Assembly: GCA_030390025.1 (NCBI GenBank)
Contig: CM059426.1
Span: 183,644,001-183,708,000, forward strand
Origin: Squalus acanthias
Taxonomy: Eukaryota
Direction of reading: 5' to 3'
Length of the DNA stretch: 64,000 nucleotides
Made by a program: the position numbers and the translations under genes. Within the stretch, counting starts at the first letter, position 1; every line of letters begins with the position of its first letter. Positions 4,362 to 48,131 of this stretch are shown here, piece by piece. The notes under the pieces were generated by a model, which worked only from the letters and a program-made list of their open reading frames with translations, was not told the origin of the DNA and made no database searches.

Positions 4362-4966
4362 CTTTTCTTAGCCAATGGCCTTCCACAGTGCCAATGGTAT
4401 TGCTTCGAAGAGTTTTGCCGGACGTAGGAACGCTGTAATTAGTATCGGCCTCTGAGGATGATCGAGGTACACAATAGGTGTCCACCGGGGAACGGTCATG
4501 AGATAAAGAAGGTTTTGGTGGGCGAGGTGGAGGAACATCTGGTATAGGTTCCAACTTTGAGCAACTTTGACTCAGGGTCCCCTCTACAGAAGATCGTGGA
4601 ATCTGATAAGTACCTCCAGGTGTTGGAGGAATGTCATAACAGACAGACATCTGTCTCATTTGATTCTCTATACCAGATATCCGTGAGGGTGTATTAAATA
4701 CGTATAAATCTCCTTCACTATCAGCAGTCGATGGAGAGCAAGTTCCAGCAATTATGTCTTGAGAATAACTCCTTGGCAGGTTGTAAAGATTTGGATCTGT
4801 AAACGTGGAAGTAACTCTGGGTGGGGGAGAATCGTAAAAGCTTTGCTGTGAAAAGAAGCCATTCATAGCCTGTTTAGGTGCAGGAGGTGCTGGGGGTTTG
4901 TGTGAAGGTACATTGTCATTGCAATCAGTTTCTGATGAGGTGGACTTCAAAGAATCTGCATGCAAC
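4362..4966 (-). CDS. GAB1: GAB1 coding exon 4 (YxxP cluster and GRB2-SH3 binding PPPRPPKP)
   Basis: Acceptor ttttcag| at 4967 and donor AAG|gtcagt at 4361; 605 nt, phase 2 to 1. Encodes [58 protein letters not shown] and YSVP. Confidence 0.96.
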
Positions 4967-5497
4967 CTGAAAAACAAATCAGAACACTTCAAAAACTGTT
5001 CCCCACACCAGCGCCATTAGGCATGCAAAAAAGTGATCAGTGCAAATCAACAGTCTGCAGTTAGCTGCCTTGGGTGGAAACTGATTTTACGGAGGTAATT
5101 TAGCAACCCCAACTTTTCTTTTGGGCAGATTCATAATCTATGGATTAGAATACTTAGCTGTACTTTTGTAATTATTTCAAATAATTTCAAGGGAATGACA
5201 TTGAGGGCATGCCTTCAGTGCTGGCCTGCTGATCTCACCTGCTTCTAATTTAACGATTTACAAAAGAAATGATGGGGCTGCTACAAGTACACAAACTAAA
5301 TAATCACTTCAACCAGCAGACAAGAGAAAGTAAATCCATTGGAATGCAAACATGCAGACAAGAAATTTTACATTTAAACTTCAAATAAAATTCCAGTGCT
5401 TCAACATAACGAGAAATTGTCACCCAGAGGTAAACCAGATTGAGATTCTACCTTCCATAAACCTCAGCTCATCCAAAACTCAGCTACCCATATCCTA

Positions 5498-6249
5498 AAT
5501 AACAGAAAACGCTGGAAAAACTCAGCAGGCGAGGCAGCATCCGTGGAGAGAGAAACAGAGTTAACGTTTCAGGTCGAAGACCTTTCATCAGAACTGGAGA
5601 CAGCAGGAAATCAAATAGATTTAAAGCGAGGATGAAGCTGGGAAAAGGGGGAGGGGATAAAAGAACAAAAGGAGACATTAAGAGATATCAAGGCAAGAGG
5701 TGGTATTAATGTGACAGGTTAAGGCTGAAAGAAGTGTGAAATCCACTGGCAGAATGAAGGACAGCTGCCAGCTTCTAGGAGGGAAAAAAAAAGGGGGGAT
5801 GAGAAAATAAAATATAAATGTGATGGGGCTAAGGTTATGATCTAAAATTGTTGAACTCGATATTGAGTCCAGAGGGCTGTAGCGTGCCTAAACGAAAGAT
5901 GAGGTGCTGTTCCTCAAGCTTACGCTGCGCTTCCGTGGAACAGTGTAATAGGCCAAGGACGGTGAGGTCAGAGTGGGAGTAAAGCGGTGAATTAAAGTGA
6001 CAGGCGACCAGGAGCTCGGGGTCCCCCTTACGGACTGAACGGAGGTGTTCCGCAAAGCAGTCACCCAATCTGCGTTTGGTCTCCCCAATGTAGAGGAGAC
6101 CACGTCGTGAGCAGCGAATACAGTATACTAAATTGCAGGAAGTACAAGTAAATCGCTGTTTCACCTGGAATGCTGCCTCGCCTGCTGAGTTTTTCCAGCG
6201 TTTTCTGTTGTTATTTCGGATTTCCAGCATCTGCAGTATTTTGCTATCA
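5498..6249 (-). mobile_element. Penelope-like retroelement fragment with GIY-YIG endonuclease end, inverted tail and 13-bp TSD
   Basis: ORF 5835-6170 encodes FTCTSCNLVYCIRCSRRGLLYIGETKRRLGDCFAEH...LEEQHLIFRLGTLQPSGLNIEF. Segment ~5500-5541 is inverted relative to ~6170-6213. Direct repeat TACCCATATCCTA lies at 5485-5497 and 6250-6262. Confidence 0.92.
5559..5595 (-). ncRNA. Minimal type I hammerhead ribozyme motif (PLE family A)
   Basis: AGUU-CUGAUGA-A-AGGUC(UUC)GACCU-GAAA-CG-UU-AACU: conserved core, stem I AGUU/AACU, stem II, and palindromic stem III AACGUU. Confidence 0.75.
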
Positions 6250-6994
6250 TACCCATATCCTATCCTGCACCAAGTCCCACTCACCCATCACCCCTATCTT
6301 CACCAATTTATTTTGAATCCTGCTCCCCCAATGCCTCAAATTTAAAATTCTCCTCCTGGTGTTTAAATCCCTCTATGGCTTCACTCCCCCATCTCCTTCA
6401 GTGGTACAAACCGCCCCCCCCCCGCCCCCCCGCAGACTCCGGCCTCTTGTGCATTTCCCCCCCCCCCCTTTTGCAGCACTGGCAGATGTGCCCTAAGCCT
6501 TCTAGGTCCTATGCTCTGAAATTCCCTCCCTAAACCACTCCGCCTCTCCACCTCCCTCTCCTCCTTTAATACCCTCCTTAAAACAAACCCCTCTGACCAA
6601 GCTTTTGGTCACCCCTCCTAATATCTCAGTCTTTGGCTTGAAGTCCATTTTTCCTTACACCTCTGTGAAGTGCCTTGGTATGTTTTTCTCTGTTAAAGGC
6701 ACTAAATAAATGTAAGTTGTTAAAAAAACAATCTACTTTAAGTCACTAAACTCGATACACATGCACCACTGATTTCACTTTTTTGTCTCTTATTATTACT
6801 TGGATTTTCACAGGAAATGGATTAGAAAATTCAGTACAATCATTCCATTCTTTCGGATCTGCCTCTCTCTTTAGAACAAAGCTCTGTACTTCTGTGTGTT
6901 TGTATTGTTTGACATGGAGGAGCAATATTCATTGTAAAGGCCAGTTTTGTGTGTTCAATTATAAAAAGGACAAATAAGCCATAAAGACCACACA

Positions 6995-7450
6995 ACAGAT
7001 TCACCAGGATGGTACAGAGGATGAGCAACTAAAATTAGTAGCAGACGAGATACTGCGACTATTTACACTGGAACAAAGAAGTCTAAATGGAGATTTAAGA
7101 GATTTTTAAAAAAATGTCGACGGGTTTTGATTGGGTGAATCTGGTTGGAGGGTGAACCTGGTTGGAGAATCAGTGACAAGTGGTCACCAATTTACAATGC
7201 TCACTAAGAGAGTAAAAAGGGAGGTTAGGCGAAGTTTCTTTATGCAGAGTCGTTGGAACATAGAATTCTTTGCCACAGGCAAGAGTTGAGGCAGAAATTA
7301 TTGCATCTTTTCAGGGAAAAATAGTTTAACATTTGAAGCAGAGTAGGATGCAGGGATATGGGAAGAGAGCAGAACAATGGGATTGGTTTTGGAGCAAAGA
7401 GCAAAGAACTGTCTGATGAAAATAAACTCTGGTTTATCGGATCTTTCATG
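6995..7450 (+). mobile_element. Old CR1 LINE 3' fragment
   Basis: AGATTCACCAGGATGGTAC..CTGGAACAAAGAAGTCTAAATGGAGATTTAA corresponds to degenerate RFTRM../LEQRRLRGDL motifs. Confidence 0.6.
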
Positions 7451-7695
7451 ATGTAGAGCACTACTGCTCCTCCCTCCCCAAGGTTTCAAATTTGCACAAT
7501 TCTGTGCGTAATTCCACCACACTTCATATTTTCCTTTAAAAGCAAAGATCTTACTCATAAAAATTAAACCAATCTTTCATATGCCTTAGGGGAGGAAAAC
7601 ACATTACCTACCTGTACAGATTACATGTTTCTCAGTAAGTGTGAATAGTACTTTAAACAATGCCAATTTTGAACACACATAATAAAAAGTTACAG

Positions 7696-7925
7696 AAACA
7701 GAAAATGCTGGAAATACTCAGCAGGTCAGGCAGCATCTGTGGAGAGAGAAAAACAGAGTTAACGTTTCAGGCCGATGACCTTTCATCAGAACTCACGACG
7801 AAAGGTCATCGACCTGAAACGTTAACTCTGTTTCTCTCTCCACAGATGCTGCCTGACCTGCTGAGTACTTCCAGCATTTCTGTTTTTATTTCAAATTTCC
7901 TGCATCCGCAGTATTTTGCTTTTGT
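7696..7925. mobile_element. Palindromic PLE tail remnant (family A)
   Basis: Arms ~7696-7787 and ~7797-7885 are near-perfect inverted repeats of the tail seen at 5500-5595 and 6170-6249. Confidence 0.88.
7756..7794 (-). ncRNA. Minimal hammerhead ribozyme motif (PLE family A)
   Basis: GAGUU-CUGAUGA-A-AGGUC(AUC)GGCCU-GAAA-CG-UU-AACUC; 5-bp stem I and a G-U pair in stem II. Confidence 0.75.
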
Positions 7926-8874
7926 AATAAAGAGAGTTGCTGGGCAGAACACGAAGGTTTTTTTTTAAAAAACGACACCGTTGGAAACTGACTGCAATAC
8001 AAAGAATAAAGTGAACACCAATACTGGAAAATGTTACAAGTCAGTCTGCTGCTGCAATCAACTGCACTTCCAACATTTTCAGATTCCACAGATCTTTCCA
8101 CACCATCTGAAAATGTACATCAATTTTGCTTTAATCGATACAGGAGCCACACTTGAAAATATGCAAACTATTTGAAGCATATACAATGGCACTGGAAACA
8201 AGAGTCCAGCTCCATTTTAACAATGGAAAATGTGCAATTGCGACAGGGTAATCACAATACTAGGAGTAATACAGCAGTTATAGTTTAAAAAAAAGTCTAA
8301 CAAGGTTTTTGAACAATAAATCTGACTGAACTTGGTTTTACAGCTAGTGTTACAGACAGAAGCACCATTGCTAATGATGTCTTAGGCTTTGACACTTTGA
8401 CCTTCAAGCAATATTGCAGAACAACAGAATCTGAATCCCACCTGGGTGATAATTAAAAAAACAAATCATAGGCCAGGTAACTCTCATTAATTTTCATGCC
8501 TTTGCCTTTGCTAAAAGTAGCTCTTGAAAATAATTTAATGAATCTTGTTCCACAATGAAAATGCATCTCTTTATTATTCATGTAGAATTAAAAGAAGAAA
8601 AAGGTAATCTTGCATCATGTGAGTGTAAACAAGATTTGTCTGGCCCTTCAGTGTTCTATATTAGACACATTCTGGCCCAAGGTCCATGATATTGCATATC
8701 AGTGATTTGAGGACAGTGAATTGAAGTTATTTGCTTGACTGAAGTTTCTGACATGGAGAGTGAGAAGAAGAAAGGGTTTTAAAAAAAAAAGTTTACTTCT
8801 ATAATTCACTACTACTTTATGCAAGAACATCTGTACACCTGTCAGACTGCACAGCAGCATTTTCATAGAAAAAC

Positions 8875-9052
8875 AAAGTTGGAAACTCACAGCAGGACAG
8901 TGCAGAGAACAGACAAGTTCATGTTTTGGGCGTGGACCCTTCTTCACCTGAAACACTAATTTTTAACCTGTTCTCTCCACAGATGCTGACCGACTTCTGA
9001 GTCTTTCCAGCATTTTCTGTTTTTGTTTCAGTTATCTGTAGTATTTTCTTTT
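8875..9052. mobile_element. Older degenerate palindromic PLE tail remnant
   Basis: ..CCTGAAACA..TCTCTCCACAGATGCTGACCGACTTCTGAGTCTTTCCAGCATTTTCTGTTTTTG, preceded by a decayed inverted arm. Confidence 0.6.
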
Positions 9053-10000
9053 TACTCACATTTTTGAAGAGTTTGATCCAAACAAACAAACAGAAATTTG
9101 TTCTGAAGATAGAGAAAATTGATTCGTCTCACTTTTAGTAAACATATGTTTAAATCCAGTAACAACTGCCAGAATGGTTAATAAATTCCAGTGTCAAAAG
9201 CCTAACTGTCTGGATCCTGCAGCGAATATACTACTGTAAATCTCAACTTCTGGTAACTGCAATAGCAACCTTTAATAGTACAATATTGTAGATGACCCTT
9301 TATAAGCCATGCAGAAATACTTTTAACAGGAATTTGGGGCTAATAATTGTCAATTTTTGAAAAGATCAGGTTCTCACGAATAATCTATACCATAATCGAT
9401 CCACACGCACATCTTACTCATTCATCGTTTTTACATGCAGAATGATTCAGTAGTCACCTTGCATTGAAGCAAAACAACTTGCATCACTAGATTTATGCAT
9501 ATTTCTGTAGTTCAAATAAATAGTTATGTGATCTAAAAAAAGGGCCAAAAATAAAAGTAACCTATGCATCTATGAAAACTTTATAAAAGCATCCTCATGA
9601 ACCTCACCTTCATGCAGGTTTTTAGTTACCTGAAAATTTTGAGTTACAACTTCTGCAATGGTGTACAAGGTCTTTTGCTGCTCAGCATAAAGCTTATTGC
9701 TGCAACGTTAATCAGTATGGCATACACCTTACTACCGCCAAGTTCAAAAGCTGGTATATGGATCCACAAACATTGGCAATCTTCACCATTCTTCACATCC
9801 CAGCCTAGACAGTGACCGTCGGCAGCCTATGTGACCCTGTCCTCACACCAAGTCCACAATTACATATACTCTCCAGTAGGGGTCACTGGGTAGTAATCAG
9901 TAGCAGATCACTGGCTGATTTTTACCGTCCCTAACAAAGGGTTGCTGAGGTCAATTGAAAAGCTTCAACTGTTCCTGCTGTTTACATCAGTTATTTTGCA

Positions 10001-13047: not shown

Positions 13048-13686
13048 ATATATAATTACACAATATATATGATATATAGATACATACATAATATATATAC
13101 ACACACAAATGCCAACTCTGATTAAGTCAACCATTTAAAAAAAAGATATAGGAGGCATTTTTCCACATAACATTCAAAGATAACTCACTGTAATGCCTTA
13201 TCCTGGAACACTCTCTCAAGTGTACTACAGTGTTTAGGCATGCCTTACAAATCATTGGATTTTACAGTGTTTAATATACTTACCTACCTACGTATGAAAG
13301 GTAGTCAGAGTCAATTCACACAGCAGTCCATTTCAATAAATGAGATTAGAAGGAGCATATGAAAAATGTTCCAAAGGGTTTACATTGGCTAACATATGAT
13401 TACAAAATAAGTACCATGCAACCTCTACCCAGGATTCAGAATTCACCAAGCATGAGTCCCACACCATGCCATCGCCCACTCCTTTGTCAAAGTTTCACAA
13501 AATCCACTGTAGCGAGTTAGTAGGAAGCAGATATATTGAGGTTAGAATTTCAAGCAGTGGCAATAGTGCAATTTGCAGAGTGGAGAGCCAAACCATTTCT
13601 GCCACACAGATCAATCCTGAAATGCTGAGAACTGCAAACGAGCCTACGTTTTCACTATAGACCCATTTACAGTTTGTTAAACTCAC

Positions 13687-13773
13687 TGGTTGTGAAACGG
13701 ATGCTTTCTGCTTTCAAAATCTTCCAGCAGAAGATACTCGTCCCCCTCTTCTGTGGCAAATGATGATGCTCGG
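13687..13773 (-). CDS. GAB1: GAB1 in-frame cassette exon (29 codons), probable homologue of the striated-muscle-specific insertion
   Basis: Acceptor cttccatttcccctgtttgtgaaatag| and donor |gtgagt; 87 nt, phase 2 to 2, no stop codon. Encodes SRASSFATEEGDEYLLLEDFESRKHPFHN(Q). Confidence 0.8.
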
Positions 13774-16649
13774 CTATTTCACAAACAGGGGAAATGGAAG
13801 ATGACAACATAACAAAGGCTTGGCGAGATCTAATTACAGAGCTGAGTGTAATAAAGAGCTCAATTAAACAAAAGGAAACATTTGCTTGCATGAAAGTGCC
13901 ATCTTCCACTGACATGCAGCTGACTATAAAGCAGTGTATTACAAAATATAATCAATTTGCAACCTTTTAATTCTGTGTATATCCTGTCAAATTATAATTG
14001 GCACTAAACAAACTGAACTGTGTATATAAAAATCAACTGACGCACAGGCAAATAATTGAATAGCTGCTGCATTGTTAATGTTTCAAATTTAATATCCAAC
14101 ATACACTATTAACTTTGTTAAATATTGGCATTGTATCAGTAGCTTACCTTATTACTGTTTCCCTTCAAGGGCGAGTGCCTAAAATTCACAAGTGCCATAG
14201 ATACAAGCAAGCTATAAAAGTCTTTCTCAAGAGTAAAATAATAAATACAAACTTACTGGAAGTCAATTTATTTTGTACATAGTTTCATTCGACATTGAAG
14301 TCTACAGGGTGCAACAGATTTGGAGCTTGTGTGTGTAATTAATTGCAACAATTTACAAAAGTTTCAGGCATCAAAATGCCTTTAACAGCCTTGAAATCTC
14401 TCGCTCTAGGTTTGAGATGTCATCATCTCTGATTCAGAGATGGTCAAGAAGAGCAAGTGGAAAGAAATGGCAAGCAAATAGATTGAAGCCATGTCAAGAG
14501 ACCATTGAGTAGCTTCTGCAATGATTTAATACCCTTTCCTTTCACCTTGAACCTTGTCTGAATCCTGCCCAGTCTAATAGGATGAAATGATCCAACACAG
14601 ACATGATGGGCTGAATATGGTGTAAAAGAGGCCTATCTTCTATGATTTTATGGCAAGCCCTTTGCGCATCACCCACAAGGATCTTATATTAACTGAGTGT
14701 GGGATCGGCCTCAACTCAGGTCCAAGCAGGTGCGGGGGCCATAGGACAAAACTCCTTGATCTTAGCAATCTTAAACCAGTGGTTACAGGAGAGCTGAAAG
14801 TAGAAAAGTTCCCACTGGTACAAGTTAGGGGGAATGCTCTTCTGAGAGTGGAGCTAAGACACATAAGAGAAAAATCTCCTTTGTGTGCCAAGTGCAGAAT
14901 GGTAAACCTGTTCTTTATAAGTGGGTTTATGATTTTGCTGCATCTAAGGCACAGAGAAAATCTTCCCTATTGTTGAATAGAGCAGAGGGGGTTTATTCTT
15001 GATCTGGCAGTGCTATACAATTTGGGAATACATAACACAGACAGTGGATGCAAAACATGAGACCATATTCCATTGATCAGTCTAAACATCCCATTGAAGA
15101 GAGATAAAAGTACATTACACTAAATAAGTTGAAAAGGTCTGTGTAGATAAAGTCCAAAATAGGTAGTTTGTACAAATGGTTTTTCTAATGTTGTTGATTA
15201 TGAGGGATGAATATATAATGGGTGTTTGTAATCACATACATTTAGTTCACATGATCATTCGTAGCAAAGTTTGACATTTAACAATTAAAAATTCCACAGA
15301 TCATAAACCACAAGTATTGATAAGGAAGGCGACCTGACACATCTTAGCTCAAAGAAACATGTACAGTTTCCCATCACAGCATCCAACTGCCGGTTATATG
15401 ACAACGACTTTGGCTTGTATGGAATTACATGAGATGCTTCTGGAACATTTGGAAAATTATGATGAGCTTTTTTTAAAAAAAAAAGAAAATTGCATATATG
15501 CAACAACTAGACCAAATCATATGCGTTCACCATTTAATAGTGACTCTTTTTAGACTTAAATGTTAGCGGGGTGATTACTGGCAAAAGTTTAAGACACTAA
15601 TGGGCCTTCTGTGGTACTGCTCATGGGTAGTCAAGGGTTTGCTGACCGGTTTTAATGGTTAGCTACTAATCTGACCTTGACCTTCAAGGCCAATGATCCA
15701 ATTCAAGGAATGGTAACTACTAGGAAACTGTTGAGGTCAGAAAGTAGTTGAAATTTTTAGATTCCACATCAGTGTTCTCTTTTCTTTGTAACACTATTGT
15801 TTTGCACCTTCTTGCATCTGTAACAGATGCACGCTAGATGTAAGACTTTATACTAGCCGCTGCTCATAGTAGGCCAGAGGATGCAATGTTTTATAAAGAC
15901 AAGAACATTGTACCATGCAAAAAACAGGTATCATTCTTCTGCTAAAGTGGAAGTATGTGCTCTTTTGAAGTTACAAAGTCTCTAAGTGCTGTTAGGCAAA
16001 CACTGGGATGATACAGATGTCAATTAAGAGACTCCAGACATCCTGACTCAGTTATTCTGTGTCCCTGGAGGGATCCTTCGTATTTCACTTTGAAGAGTGG
16101 CAGAGTTGAGTGTGAAAGAGAAGTGAGGCAAACAGGAAGGTTTATTAAATTATGTTAAATATATGATAACTTACTAGCATATTTCTATTTATTTTAAGAG
16201 AAAAATCCAGAAATAACCCATTTCCAGGTTATGTTCTGATACTATACTTTTCAGTTGATAGTTTTAAACTAAATTGATCTTTAACTCCCAGTAACACGAT
16301 GAGTGAATTTAATACAGATGGATTTCTAAAATATCTTTTGAAACATTAGTTCTAAGCATTAAACAATGAAAGCTGCAAAATCATACAGAATATAATTGTT
16401 ATTACAGCTTTGCATTCTGAGGAATCGAATGTAAGTGCAATTCGGAAGTTTTAATTACCAAGGGTTCATCAGAAAATTTTAAACCTACAAAATTGGTGAT
16501 GTAATTGAAGAATGCAACAGAGTCTCAGAGGATGACAAAATGTGTCAGAAGACAATTCCAATATAAAAACTTCTCAAAACATTTCTGAAGGCACAATTAA
16601 ACTTAAACTATGTTATGTAATTTCTGTGTAATGGTATAGATAAATGCAC

Positions 16650-17500
16650 TGAAGCTGAAACCCTAATCCATATCTTCTTCACCTTGATGATTAATTTCCT
16701 CAATGCTCTCCTTGAGGACCTCCAACCTTGCAAACTTCACCTGATCCCTGGACCCACATCTCCTGCACTTCCATCATCTCTGCCCTTGCCAAGATCCACT
16801 GGCCCAGTGTCCTCATGACAAACCAACTTCAAGATCCTTGTCCTTGTATTCAAATCCCTCCATCATATCAAAATGATATGTCTATACATGCACCATCCAT
16901 TCTTCTGTGCAGATTATTGCTTGTACCCCACTCTTTCTGCTACTCCACTAAAGGCCAATCTTTCAATCACATGGCCCCTGGCAGCTTTGCTTAGTGATTG
17001 CACACTTGCCTCTGAATCAGGTCATGATTTCAAGCCCTGCTCCAGAATTTGAGTACATAATCTAGGCCGACACTTCAGTGCACTAACGAGGGAGTGCTGC
17101 ATTGTTGGAAGCGTTGGCATTTCATGAGATGATTACCTGCCTGTTCAAGTGTACATAAAAGATGCCAGGCACTATCTGAAGAGGAGCAGGAGTATTGTCT
17201 TGGTGTCCTGGTCAATAATTATCCTTCAAGCAAAACCACCAAAAACAGATTAACTGATTATTTATCTCACTGCTGTTAGTGTGCATAAATTGGCTGCTGC
17301 ATTTGCCTGCATTACATCAATGACTTCAAAAAGTAATTTATTGCCTGTGAAATGCTTTGGGACATTGAAAATGTGAAAGGAGCAATATAAATGCAAGTTC
17401 TTTCTTTGCCCTGTATAATTCTCTCCTAAAACAACTTTGTCTTGCTACTTCTCTCCCTACTTTCAAAAGCTTGCAGGATACCCTTCACTTGACTAAGCCT
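16650..17500 (+). mobile_element. Decayed L2-like LINE fragment interrupted by a SINE
   Basis: GCTGAAACCCTAATCCAT..CTCAATGCTCTCC (AETLIH...NALL-like) and ATCCACTGGC..CTTCAAGATCCTTGTCCTTGTATTCAAATCCCTCCAT (LHW..FKILVLVFKSLH). Confidence 0.6.
16990..17407 (+). mobile_element. DeuSINE/SacSINE1-like SINE
   Basis: Same head, core and tail as 26-427. Confidence 0.75.
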
Positions 17501-19353
17501 TGTAACGATTTCATATTTACCCTCCTGTTATTAATTGGGTCCGGCTACCATTTGGAGGTCTCCTCTCGTATAATAATTTTACTAATTAACTGGGTGGTCT
17601 TGTATTTTTTTAGTCAGCTGGTAAGAATCTCTCTCCCTTAAAGGAAGCGGGTACTTTCCGCTGCCACCACCACCCCCCCTCCCAGTAATCCCAGTTAGTT
17701 AATTTATTCTTCATTGATTCTCAAATCCTTTTTATTTATCTCATACTTCAAAAATTGTCCTCTATTTTATACACACTTTTAGATAGCCAATCACACATGG
17801 CAACTTGGTTATTACAATACACAGAATTACAGACAATGTAATGGCACTCACAAGTGCATGACAATGAGTAGGTTTTCAGTTGTTGCTCTGCTCGCTCTCT
17901 CTATTACACTGGAGACTCTGACTTTGACCGAGGACCTGTGCTTCTTCCCTGGTTCCCTGTCTTTCAGTCTCCCTGTCTCTCGAGTCTCCTTCTCTGTCCC
18001 TGCTCCCTTTTATGCCTTGCTCTTCTAGCCAAATGTGACCTATGCTGCTCGCTGATTCACCCCACGCAACCTCTGCTGGCTTCTTCCGGATTCATTTTAA
18101 GTGGCTGCCGCACTTGACTGCGGAACTGCACCCACTACTTGACCCTGCCTTTTTGACAAATGATGGAGCGTTTCGCTACAGCCTTCTGTGTTCTCCCTCG
18201 CTCCTTCCCTAAATTTGCCTCCTCCCACCTCAGTTCCCACTTTTTCTTTATGAAGTGCTCCAAGGGGTTTCCTTTTATATAAGTACTAGTAGCAGTTATG
18301 GTAGTTTTGAAAGGGAGCTGTGTAACTGGTTGCATATGTCCTACTTCTAAGCGGTTACGTTTCTTGAAATTTGCAAATCTGGCTGGGATAAATCTGTTCA
18401 TTCCTGCATAGATATGGATTGCGATGAAAAACAGGATAGTACTGTTGTGAGCAAGTTTTCATCTGGAGAACATTTCCACTGATAAGTTTGTGCAATTCAG
18501 ATGAAAGAATTGCTGTTTTTTTGCATTGCCAGACAGACAGAAGTAGACCAAAACACTTTTAAAAGCTTTAGTTTCCATGATAATGTGATTCAAATAAATA
18601 GTCCAATAGTGGCCTTTTCATTTTAAAAAAGTATATAGGTTTAAAGTTTAATGAGGAATAGAGGGTTAAAGACTGAGCAAAGGAAGACAGGTAACCAACA
18701 CAGAGGAATAGATTTTGGGAAAGAGACAGAGCTTGGGAGTAATAGCGTGAAAGATTCAAAAACCGAACAGAGGCAGAGTGAGGATAGTTTCACTTCCTAG
18801 TTTCCTAATCCATTGACCAAGAAAACACCATCCTCATACTTTCAACTTTGTCACATTGGATACTTTGCCACATTTTAAGTAAGTTAACTTGGCAACAAAT
18901 TAAGTTCATTAATGCGACAGGGCACAAGTAAAAAAAGTCAACTATCTGCCCATCTTTTTTTCAGCATCTCTATAATATTAAATATTTCCTAAAAAATTAA
19001 GAATGATGCAAGTGATAAGCATCAAAGAAACAGTCATGATATCATTGTTCAAAATTTAATTCAGGAACTTCCCCAGCTCATATGCCTACGTAAACACTGA
19101 AAATTCAATAGCCAACCTCAAAATATGAGGCGCTTTTTATAAAAATATATATATATTTTTTAAATCACTACAAATCAAGACAGTCTATAACCATTTACAG
19201 AGAGTAAAATTTACATTCCTATTTAGAATAATACTCCAAATTATACAAATGGTTACGTCACGTCCCGATTTTAACAAACTCTTCAGATTAAGCACTGTAG
19301 CACTAATGCACTTTATAAACAGTACTGTAACACTTTCCAAACACTCATCTTAC

Positions 19354-19576
19354 CTGGCAGGCTCAGGCTTTTTGCTTTCACAGTTGGCTAACCACAGATA
19401 ATCCTGTGGATCTTCCTGGCTGGATAACGACTCCGGATGTCGCACACTGATCGGCTGATAGGGGGGAGGTAGCGAACCCATGGAAATTGTTGGCCGTACA
19501 GAAGGCTGTGTAGTACTGACAGAAAGAGGTACCTCAGTAACGGCATGGCCAGAGGGATTGGATGGCTTAACAGCAT
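19354..19576 (-). CDS. GAB1: GAB1 coding exon 3
   Basis: Acceptor ttgtag| and donor |gtaag; 223 nt, phase 1 to 2. Reads DAVKPSNPSGHAVTEVPLSVSTTQPSVRPTISMGSLPPPYQPISVRHPESLSSQEDPQDYLWLANCESKKPEPA(R), matching the GAB1 LPPPYQ...QEDPQDYL...KKPEP motifs. The ORF track shows it only in the wrong frame. Confidence 0.95.
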
Positions 19577-47836: not shown

Positions 47837-48131
47837 CTTCATCAGTAGGATTGAACCCACAGATATCACAGATGCATCGAACCCACTTATTCATTTCTTC
47901 TTCAGTGTCTGCTACCAGGTAGAAGATACGGTCAATTGTTTTGATATCAAAAATGTAACTGTTCTCAAGATCCTTCTTATTAAAGGTTAGCCCAGCATCC
48001 ACTTGCGCACAAAGATTCAAGTCAATGACACGGATCGGTTTCTTTGCATGATCATTTTTGTAGTATTCCAACACATCCGGATCTCCTGTCAGACGGCCAC
48101 TTCGAAGTACAAACCAGCGCTTCTTCCATGC
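47837..48131 (-). CDS. GAB1: GAB1 coding exon (equivalent to human exon 2), PH domain
   Basis: Encodes [98 protein letters not shown], the GAB1 PH domain. Acceptor ttttcag| at 48132 and donor |gtaagt at 47836; 295 nt, ends in phase 1. Confidence 0.97.

Follow-up and report, generated by a model that had tools for sequence, protein, structure and literature searches.

A GAB1 cassette exon of Squalus acanthias, the orthologue of the mammalian striated-muscle exon, is a probable duplicate of the Tyr183 motif of exon 3

The window, a stretch of 64,000 nucleotides of Squalus acanthias DNA, carries exons of GAB1 on the minus strand. Exon 2 (47838..48131, ends approximate from tblastn) encodes most of the PH domain, exon 3 occupies 19354..19576 (223 nt), and exon 4 occupies 4362..4966 (605 nt). 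A cassette exon of 87 nt lies in frame between exons 3 and 4 on the same strand, at 13687..13773; it has phase 2-2 and adds 29 residues, its peptide being EEGDEYLLLEDFESRK. Rereading the sequence showed that the coordinates, length, phase, open frame and peptide proposed in the initial annotation were all correct. Exon 3 stops after two bases of a codon and exon 4 supplies the third, so the skip and inclusion forms are both open. The acceptor is TAG/CCG at 13773 and the donor is CCA/GTGAGT at 13687. Calling these splice sites strong, as had been done, was somewhat generous: the donor has the full GTGAGT, but the exonic CCA is non-consensus and pyrimidines fill 13 of the 20 positions before the acceptor.

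The best match of exon 4 is cartilaginous-fish GAB1, with 95% to the sawshark Pristiophorus japonicus. When the S. acanthias genome was searched in six frames with the cassette peptide, this locus alone was returned. Three Gab PH exons were found in the same genome, one of which is the present locus; the other two are read, from their sequence, as GAB2 and GAB3.

Of nine sequencing runs guessed to be RNA, eight (X1–X4 and X6–X9) were examined for splicing; none is recorded as RNA, and tissue labels are absent from their records. The cassette is alternatively spliced, being both included and skipped. Inclusion was seen in one of the eight runs (X9 only, one of four among X6–X9) as a single contig of 147 nt and depth 10.1, which spans the cassette with no differences. 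The loose ends of this contig, 28 letters each, match exon 3 at 27 of 28 positions and exon 4 at 27 of 28 when aligned by eye, and it reaches 30 letters past each true junction, the bridge threshold being 31 letters. The junctions 19354>13773 and 13687>4966, which had been proposed as a check of the exon, are thus both represented in one contig from presumed RNA, joining the cassette to its two neighbors. The skip junction from exon 3 to exon 4 was present in all four of the runs X1–X4. An arm of an assembly bubble would have the length of the X9 contig, 87 + 2 × 30, so the skip form is likely to be present in X9 as well. No inclusion joint was among the joints listed for X1–X4, and the cassette had no coverage in X6–X8; neither result is proof of absence. 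An unspliced contig runs across the cassette in X3.

Several other features of the runs and of intron 3 were observed. At 13704-13706 the window and X9 both encode Arg (ESRK), in contrast to the Lys (ESKK) of every other listed insert from sharks and rays. A mostly single-copy intronic stretch upstream of the cassette, at 13905-16100, lies under long contigs in six of the eight runs (X1–X4, X6 and X7), with depth up to 20–30 in X1 and X2 compared with mostly 1–6 nearby; neither a joint to exon 3 nor a frame longer than 116 codons was seen. The contigs may reflect transcription within the intron, retention of a piece of it, or a priming artefact. The exon-4 contig of X2 begins at 4968, suggesting that exon 4 has another upstream partner, one whose last letters are a non-C base and AG and which is neither the cassette nor retained intron. 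High-copy repeats of intron 3 at 5328-8411, 8926-9439 and 16636-17663 drew thousands of contigs.

The mammalian high-molecular-weight Gab1 contains an 81-nt striated-muscle exon between exons 3 and 4 (Yasui et al. 2016, PMC5115770). The window peptide is identical to the human isoform P0118 at 18 of 28 positions. Between sawshark and human, the cassette core is identical at 14 of 17 positions, the same conservation as that of the exon-3 motif (14/17), compared with 23 of 53 for the exon-3 linker. Among the 120 GAB1 proteins listed among 1142 matches, the insert is present in 49, skipped in 69, and two have no exon-3 anchor; the carriers are database gene models, not tissue data. The tyrosine is kept in 49/49 of these inserts. 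Carriers include 16 of the 22 cartilaginous fish species listed, chimaera among these, together with the coelacanth, birds, a marsupial, and primates including human; cyprinid and sturgeon GAB1 proteins also contain the cassette. The initial annotation had described the exon as hidden, which does not hold, as the public gene models of those 16 species already include it. Its proposal of a homologue of the striated-muscle Gab1 exon is well founded: the intron is the same, the frame is kept, the peptide matches P0118, and intermediates occur in the coelacanth, birds and the marsupial. Judged by sequence, the cassette is the orthologue of the mammalian striated-muscle exon. The suggested origin in the jawed-vertebrate ancestor also agrees with the distribution; because the exon is present in chimaera, sharks, rays, sturgeon, cyprinids, coelacanth, birds and mammals, it should be at least as old as that ancestor. 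An exon known in mammals and present in shark gene models is not new in either group. That the cassette is a chance open frame or pseudo-exon has as its only point the rarity of inclusion among the runs examined, and this reading, of negligible probability, is already refuted by what was found, namely the spliced X9 contig and orthologous exons conserved from chimaera to human.

As a separate observation, the representatives of a teleost gab1-like paralogue (P0125, P0134 and P0139) have a single copy of the tyrosine motif described below; the exon may have been lost there or merely lie outside these isoforms.

The peptide of the cassette resembles the end of the preceding exon. Exon 3 ends in EDPQDYLWLANCESKK, which includes YLWLANCES (19374..19400, minus strand), the equivalent of human Tyr183 (PMC13435814). 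The cassette contains YLLLEDFES (13710..13736, minus strand) and so repeats the exon-3 Tyr183 motif, whose pattern is Y-hydrophobic-x-hydrophobic-x-x-C-x-S/T. The initial annotation had noted the tyrosine in the open frame, which stands, but missed this repeat. In six of six species, the top ungapped match of the cassette in the rest of GAB1 was the exon-3 motif, a match reached by 25, 0, 15, 28, 4 and 14 of 2000 shuffles; these six tests share ancestry and are not independent, and the statistics are modest. The two copies in the window are identical at 32 of 51 nt. From the start of the tyrosine codon to the donor, exon 3 measures 47 nt and the cassette 50 nt, both in phase 2, and in GAB2 and GAB3 the donor (inferred from consensus) likewise lies 47 nt past the start of the tyrosine codon in phase 2.

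We compared the motif across the Gab/Dos family. Of 97 family representatives with at least 190 residues, 68 contain it C-terminal to the PH domain, with the form YIPISEC-x-S/T-G in many distant members, which are taken for invertebrate Dos. The motif is single in most Gab/Dos proteins and occurs once in amphioxus and tunicates, and only four of the 97 representatives have two copies at most 45 residues apart. A motif profile was built from 56 first copies outside the GAB1 lineage, a training set chosen by a pattern that presumes the motif. By this profile, the cassette ranked second after exon 3 in nine of nine jawed-vertebrate isoforms, and eight of the nine cassettes outscored 55 of 56 background maxima; the exception, the sawshark cassette, scored −2.1, below at least 6 of the 56. 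The cyprinid cassette retains the Cys of the motif and scored 12.4, compared with 12.7 for its first copy. A pattern scan detected no second copy in GAB2 intron 3 or in the GAB3 stretch scanned, although a diverged copy would escape such a scan. For the motif region, nothing was returned from Pfam or PDB sequences, and there was no usable ESM Atlas match.

These comparisons make it highly likely that the cassette originated when the end of exon 3 was duplicated in tandem. In the simplest reading, the 3' part of exon 3 would have been duplicated in tandem together with its donor, and a new acceptor would have been gained. We are similarly, if slightly less, confident that the cassette is a real, orthologous duplicate of the Tyr183 motif, binding aside. 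Alternatively, the resemblance could be convergent, an acidic kinase-substrate tyrosine with leucines having arisen independently and the cyclostome inserts described below being unrelated. The motifs are short, the statistics modest and the cyclostome scores weak, which would suit convergence; however, the shared donor phase, the near-identical donor offset, the 32/51 nt identity, the first-copy-like score of the cyprinid copy and a tyrosine register that lamprey shares all argue against it, and we consider it improbable. A mutually exclusive exon pair was also considered and rejected: both copies occur in one protein, and exon 3 joins the cassette in X9.

Copies in jawless vertebrates bear on the age of the duplication. 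Of the Petromyzon marinus proteins P0133 and P0312, one carries at the place of the cassette a 28-residue insert that the other does not have; the insert holds EYFLLGDC, and its tyrosine is residue 14, which is also the register in shark and human. In the hagfish orthologue, EYYMLEDW lies 28–31 residues past the first copy. In a second hagfish gene a looser copy lies 39 residues on, and the lamprey partner of that gene shows one copy. A profile of jawed-vertebrate cassettes gave 33 for hagfish, where the 95th percentile of shuffled sequences was near 20, and 27.7 for Lethenteron; the Petromyzon copy was marginal, at 20.7 against a shuffled 95th percentile of 19.0. With the first-copy profile, the lamprey copies scored −12.9 and −4.7, and the copy of hagfish A fell outside the top three. 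A quick tree of 34 rows under a mixture model joined the lamprey and hagfish genes at 100, with their placement unresolved. An LG tree of 19 rows placed the cyclostome genes beside GAB1 at 83/89 (support unstarred), apart from GAB2 and GAB3; this tree dropped the long-branch rows hagfish C, lamprey D and inv_P0226 and a sifaka GAB2-like row, the others being thinned to 19, and used skip isoforms where possible, while hagfish A and B retain the second copy. Because lamprey has an optional 28-residue insert with the same motif at the same place, the exon probably predates the jawed vertebrates, and an origin before the split of lampreys from jawed vertebrates is the reading that we prefer from these sequences.

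Apart from the cassette, a second alternative segment was observed near the GAB1 C-terminus, of either an SFYCTVP type or an SVHSTASS type (proteins P0005, P0122, P0313 and P0291). This swap is seen in shark, teleost, coelacanth, lamprey and hagfish models, and none of the 16 proteins with the SFYCTVP type also holds the SVHSTASS type. By sequence, the segments look like an old mutually exclusive pair, and like a further character joining cyclostome clade A to GAB1.

Candidate splicing elements flank the cassette. TGCATG is the RBFOX consensus, and ACTAAC with a TAAC half-site is the QKI consensus; RBFOX and QKI sites downstream of an exon promote its inclusion in muscle. All elements described here are on the minus strand. 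A bipartite QKI-type element lies at 13516..13544, 143–171 nt downstream of the cassette, and consists of a TAAC half-site followed 18 nt later by TACTAAC. RBFOX-type TGCATG sites lie 267 nt downstream (13415..13420) and 140 nt upstream (13913..13918); the bipartite element and the downstream site have putative roles. The positions of these motifs had been given correctly, with ACTAAC at 13516-13521 now recognized as part of the bipartite site. TGCATG occurs in 10 copies in the 14.4-kb intron, and 17% of 300-nt windows of the intron hold one. Windows of this size hold TGCATG with ACTAAY in 1.6% of cases and TGCATG with a bipartite site in 1.2%, by criteria set after the sites had been seen. 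The motifs alone are therefore modest, suggestive evidence, and we lean toward the view that the downstream QKI and RBFOX sites would promote inclusion of the cassette in muscle. GAB1 was not found in four supplement files of PMC7782589, and other QKI supplements may list the exon; it was also not found in the supplement of a heart-failure splicing paper.

What the cassette may do is suggested by the properties of the first copy. Tyr183 of GAB1 is conserved and reported to be phosphorylated in cells, with no partner named; residues 180-187 form a helix in about 40% of molecules, and the tyrosines of GAB1 come in pairs (Dietrich et al. 2026, PMC13435814). The high-molecular-weight isoform of mouse is tyrosine-phosphorylated after neuregulin-1 (PMC5115770). 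As the exon appears to be a copy of the Tyr183 motif, the protein would gain a second docking site. Inclusion would place a second Tyr183-type motif 28 residues past the first, so that an orphan phosphotyrosine site would become a pair, and once receptor kinases are activated in muscle, this pair would bind its Tyr183 partner with greater strength or for longer. The spacing between the two tyrosines is 28–31 residues in 11 of 12 proteins, lamprey to human, and 39 in hagfish B. We favor a paired docking site because the second tyrosine lies 28 residues on and this spacing is kept from lamprey to human. Counting against any large effect of the insert, AKT activation in cardiomyocytes rose nearly as far with the short isoform as with the long (PMC5115770). 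An AlphaFold2 model, in which only the PH domain is folded, gave a mean pLDDT of 69 for the first-copy block and values below 50 for the second copy; the prediction agrees with local order at the first copy and with none at the second. A paired phosphotyrosine site with stronger or longer partner binding after receptor activation is a tentative proposal, to which we give somewhat less than an even chance.

The main rivals to the paired site are a change of specificity and autoinhibition through the PH domain. In the former, which is possible but less probable than the paired site, the Cys-to-Phe copy would recruit a different partner or compete with the first copy, adding no avidity. The motif Cys is replaced by Phe in most jawed vertebrates, so the second copy may bind something else: Phe is fixed in 49/49 listed inserts, whereas the first copy conserves Cys at 90% or more. 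PAK4, a binder of GAB1 residues 116-234, could be one candidate for altered binding, as the insert falls within the PAK4-binding region given in a review (PMC2747914); however, the same review calls PAK4 binding GAB1-specific, whereas the motif is found in all Gab paralogues. Furthermore, the second copies of cyprinids and lamprey keep Cys, and Phe is found in the first copy of cyclostome clade B, which makes the two residues look interchangeable.

In a less likely alternative to the paired site, the motif would fold back onto the PH domain, and a second copy would alter GAB1 autoinhibition and membrane recruitment in muscle. The position of the motif after the PH domain in most of the family (68/97, as above) fits this, as do peptide arrays in which several tail regions bind the GAB1 PH domain (PMC3039663), but an intrinsic helix, formed in the absence of the PH domain (PMC13435814), accounts for the local order in the AlphaFold2 model. 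It is very doubtful that the exon matters for its first residues, R-A-S-S-F, as a 14-3-3 or AKT-type serine site like GAB2 Ser210. R-A-S-S-F presumably resembles the GAB2 Ser210 sequence. The window does have R-x-x-S, and GAB2 Ser210 is a 14-3-3 site (PMC2747914), but the Arg at −3 of the serine is Q, H or L in whale shark, rays, coelacanth, birds and mammals and P in cyprinids, and the 14-3-3 motif was rejected because this Arg is not conserved.

The new element of this analysis is a testable reading of the origin and purpose of the exon, the kind of exon itself being known. In a search whose coverage leaves out most subscription journals, we found no literature in which the exon is tied to Tyr183, exon duplication or jawless fishes, and the main text of PMC13435814 has zero occurrences of "isoform," "exon," "splic-" or "duplicat-". 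The full proposal is that, before the lamprey split, GAB1 duplicated an orphan Tyr183 motif as old as Dos into a switchable exon, that muscle splicing turns it into a bivalent docking module, and that this is the purpose of the mammalian heart isoform; taken as a whole it is speculative and would more easily prove wrong in some part than right in all. The 2016 paper left a heart insert with no homology or mechanism, and the 2026 paper left a conserved, helical and partnerless Tyr183; the two questions merge into one test. If the insert is a second Tyr183 motif, phosphopeptides with one motif versus two should reveal the partner and explain the isoform. If true, this would show clearly that an alternative exon of vertebrates can alter the copy number of a signaling motif.

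Four known systems can be compared with the cassette. Like the mammalian high-molecular-weight Gab1 exon, it lies between exons 3 and 4, preserves the frame and is optional, but it is 87 nt long here rather than 81 nt; that study (PMC5115770) compares mammals only and calls the peptide one without homology to known functional domains, whereas here the adjoining motif matches. Like the exons formed by tandem duplication (PMC8373072), the cassette is homologous to its neighbor, old and alternatively spliced, and unlike the substitutions described there, it repeats only the 3' part of an exon and is added rather than swapped; GAB1 was not in one supplement of that study, nor in its main text by search listing. 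The proposed pair resembles Tyr627 and Tyr659 of GAB1, which engage the tandem SH2 domains of SHP2, in having two Y-hydrophobic-x-hydrophobic sites about 30 residues apart (28–31 compared with 32). It differs in that the first site here is helical, whereas most SH2 ligands are extended (PMC13435814). Finally, the second copy shares with the helical Tyr183 motif (PMC13435814) the pattern Y-L-x-L-x-x-C/F-x-S-K/R and the acidic residues before the tyrosine, but most jawed vertebrates replace its Cys with Phe, and it has no Pro before the helix.
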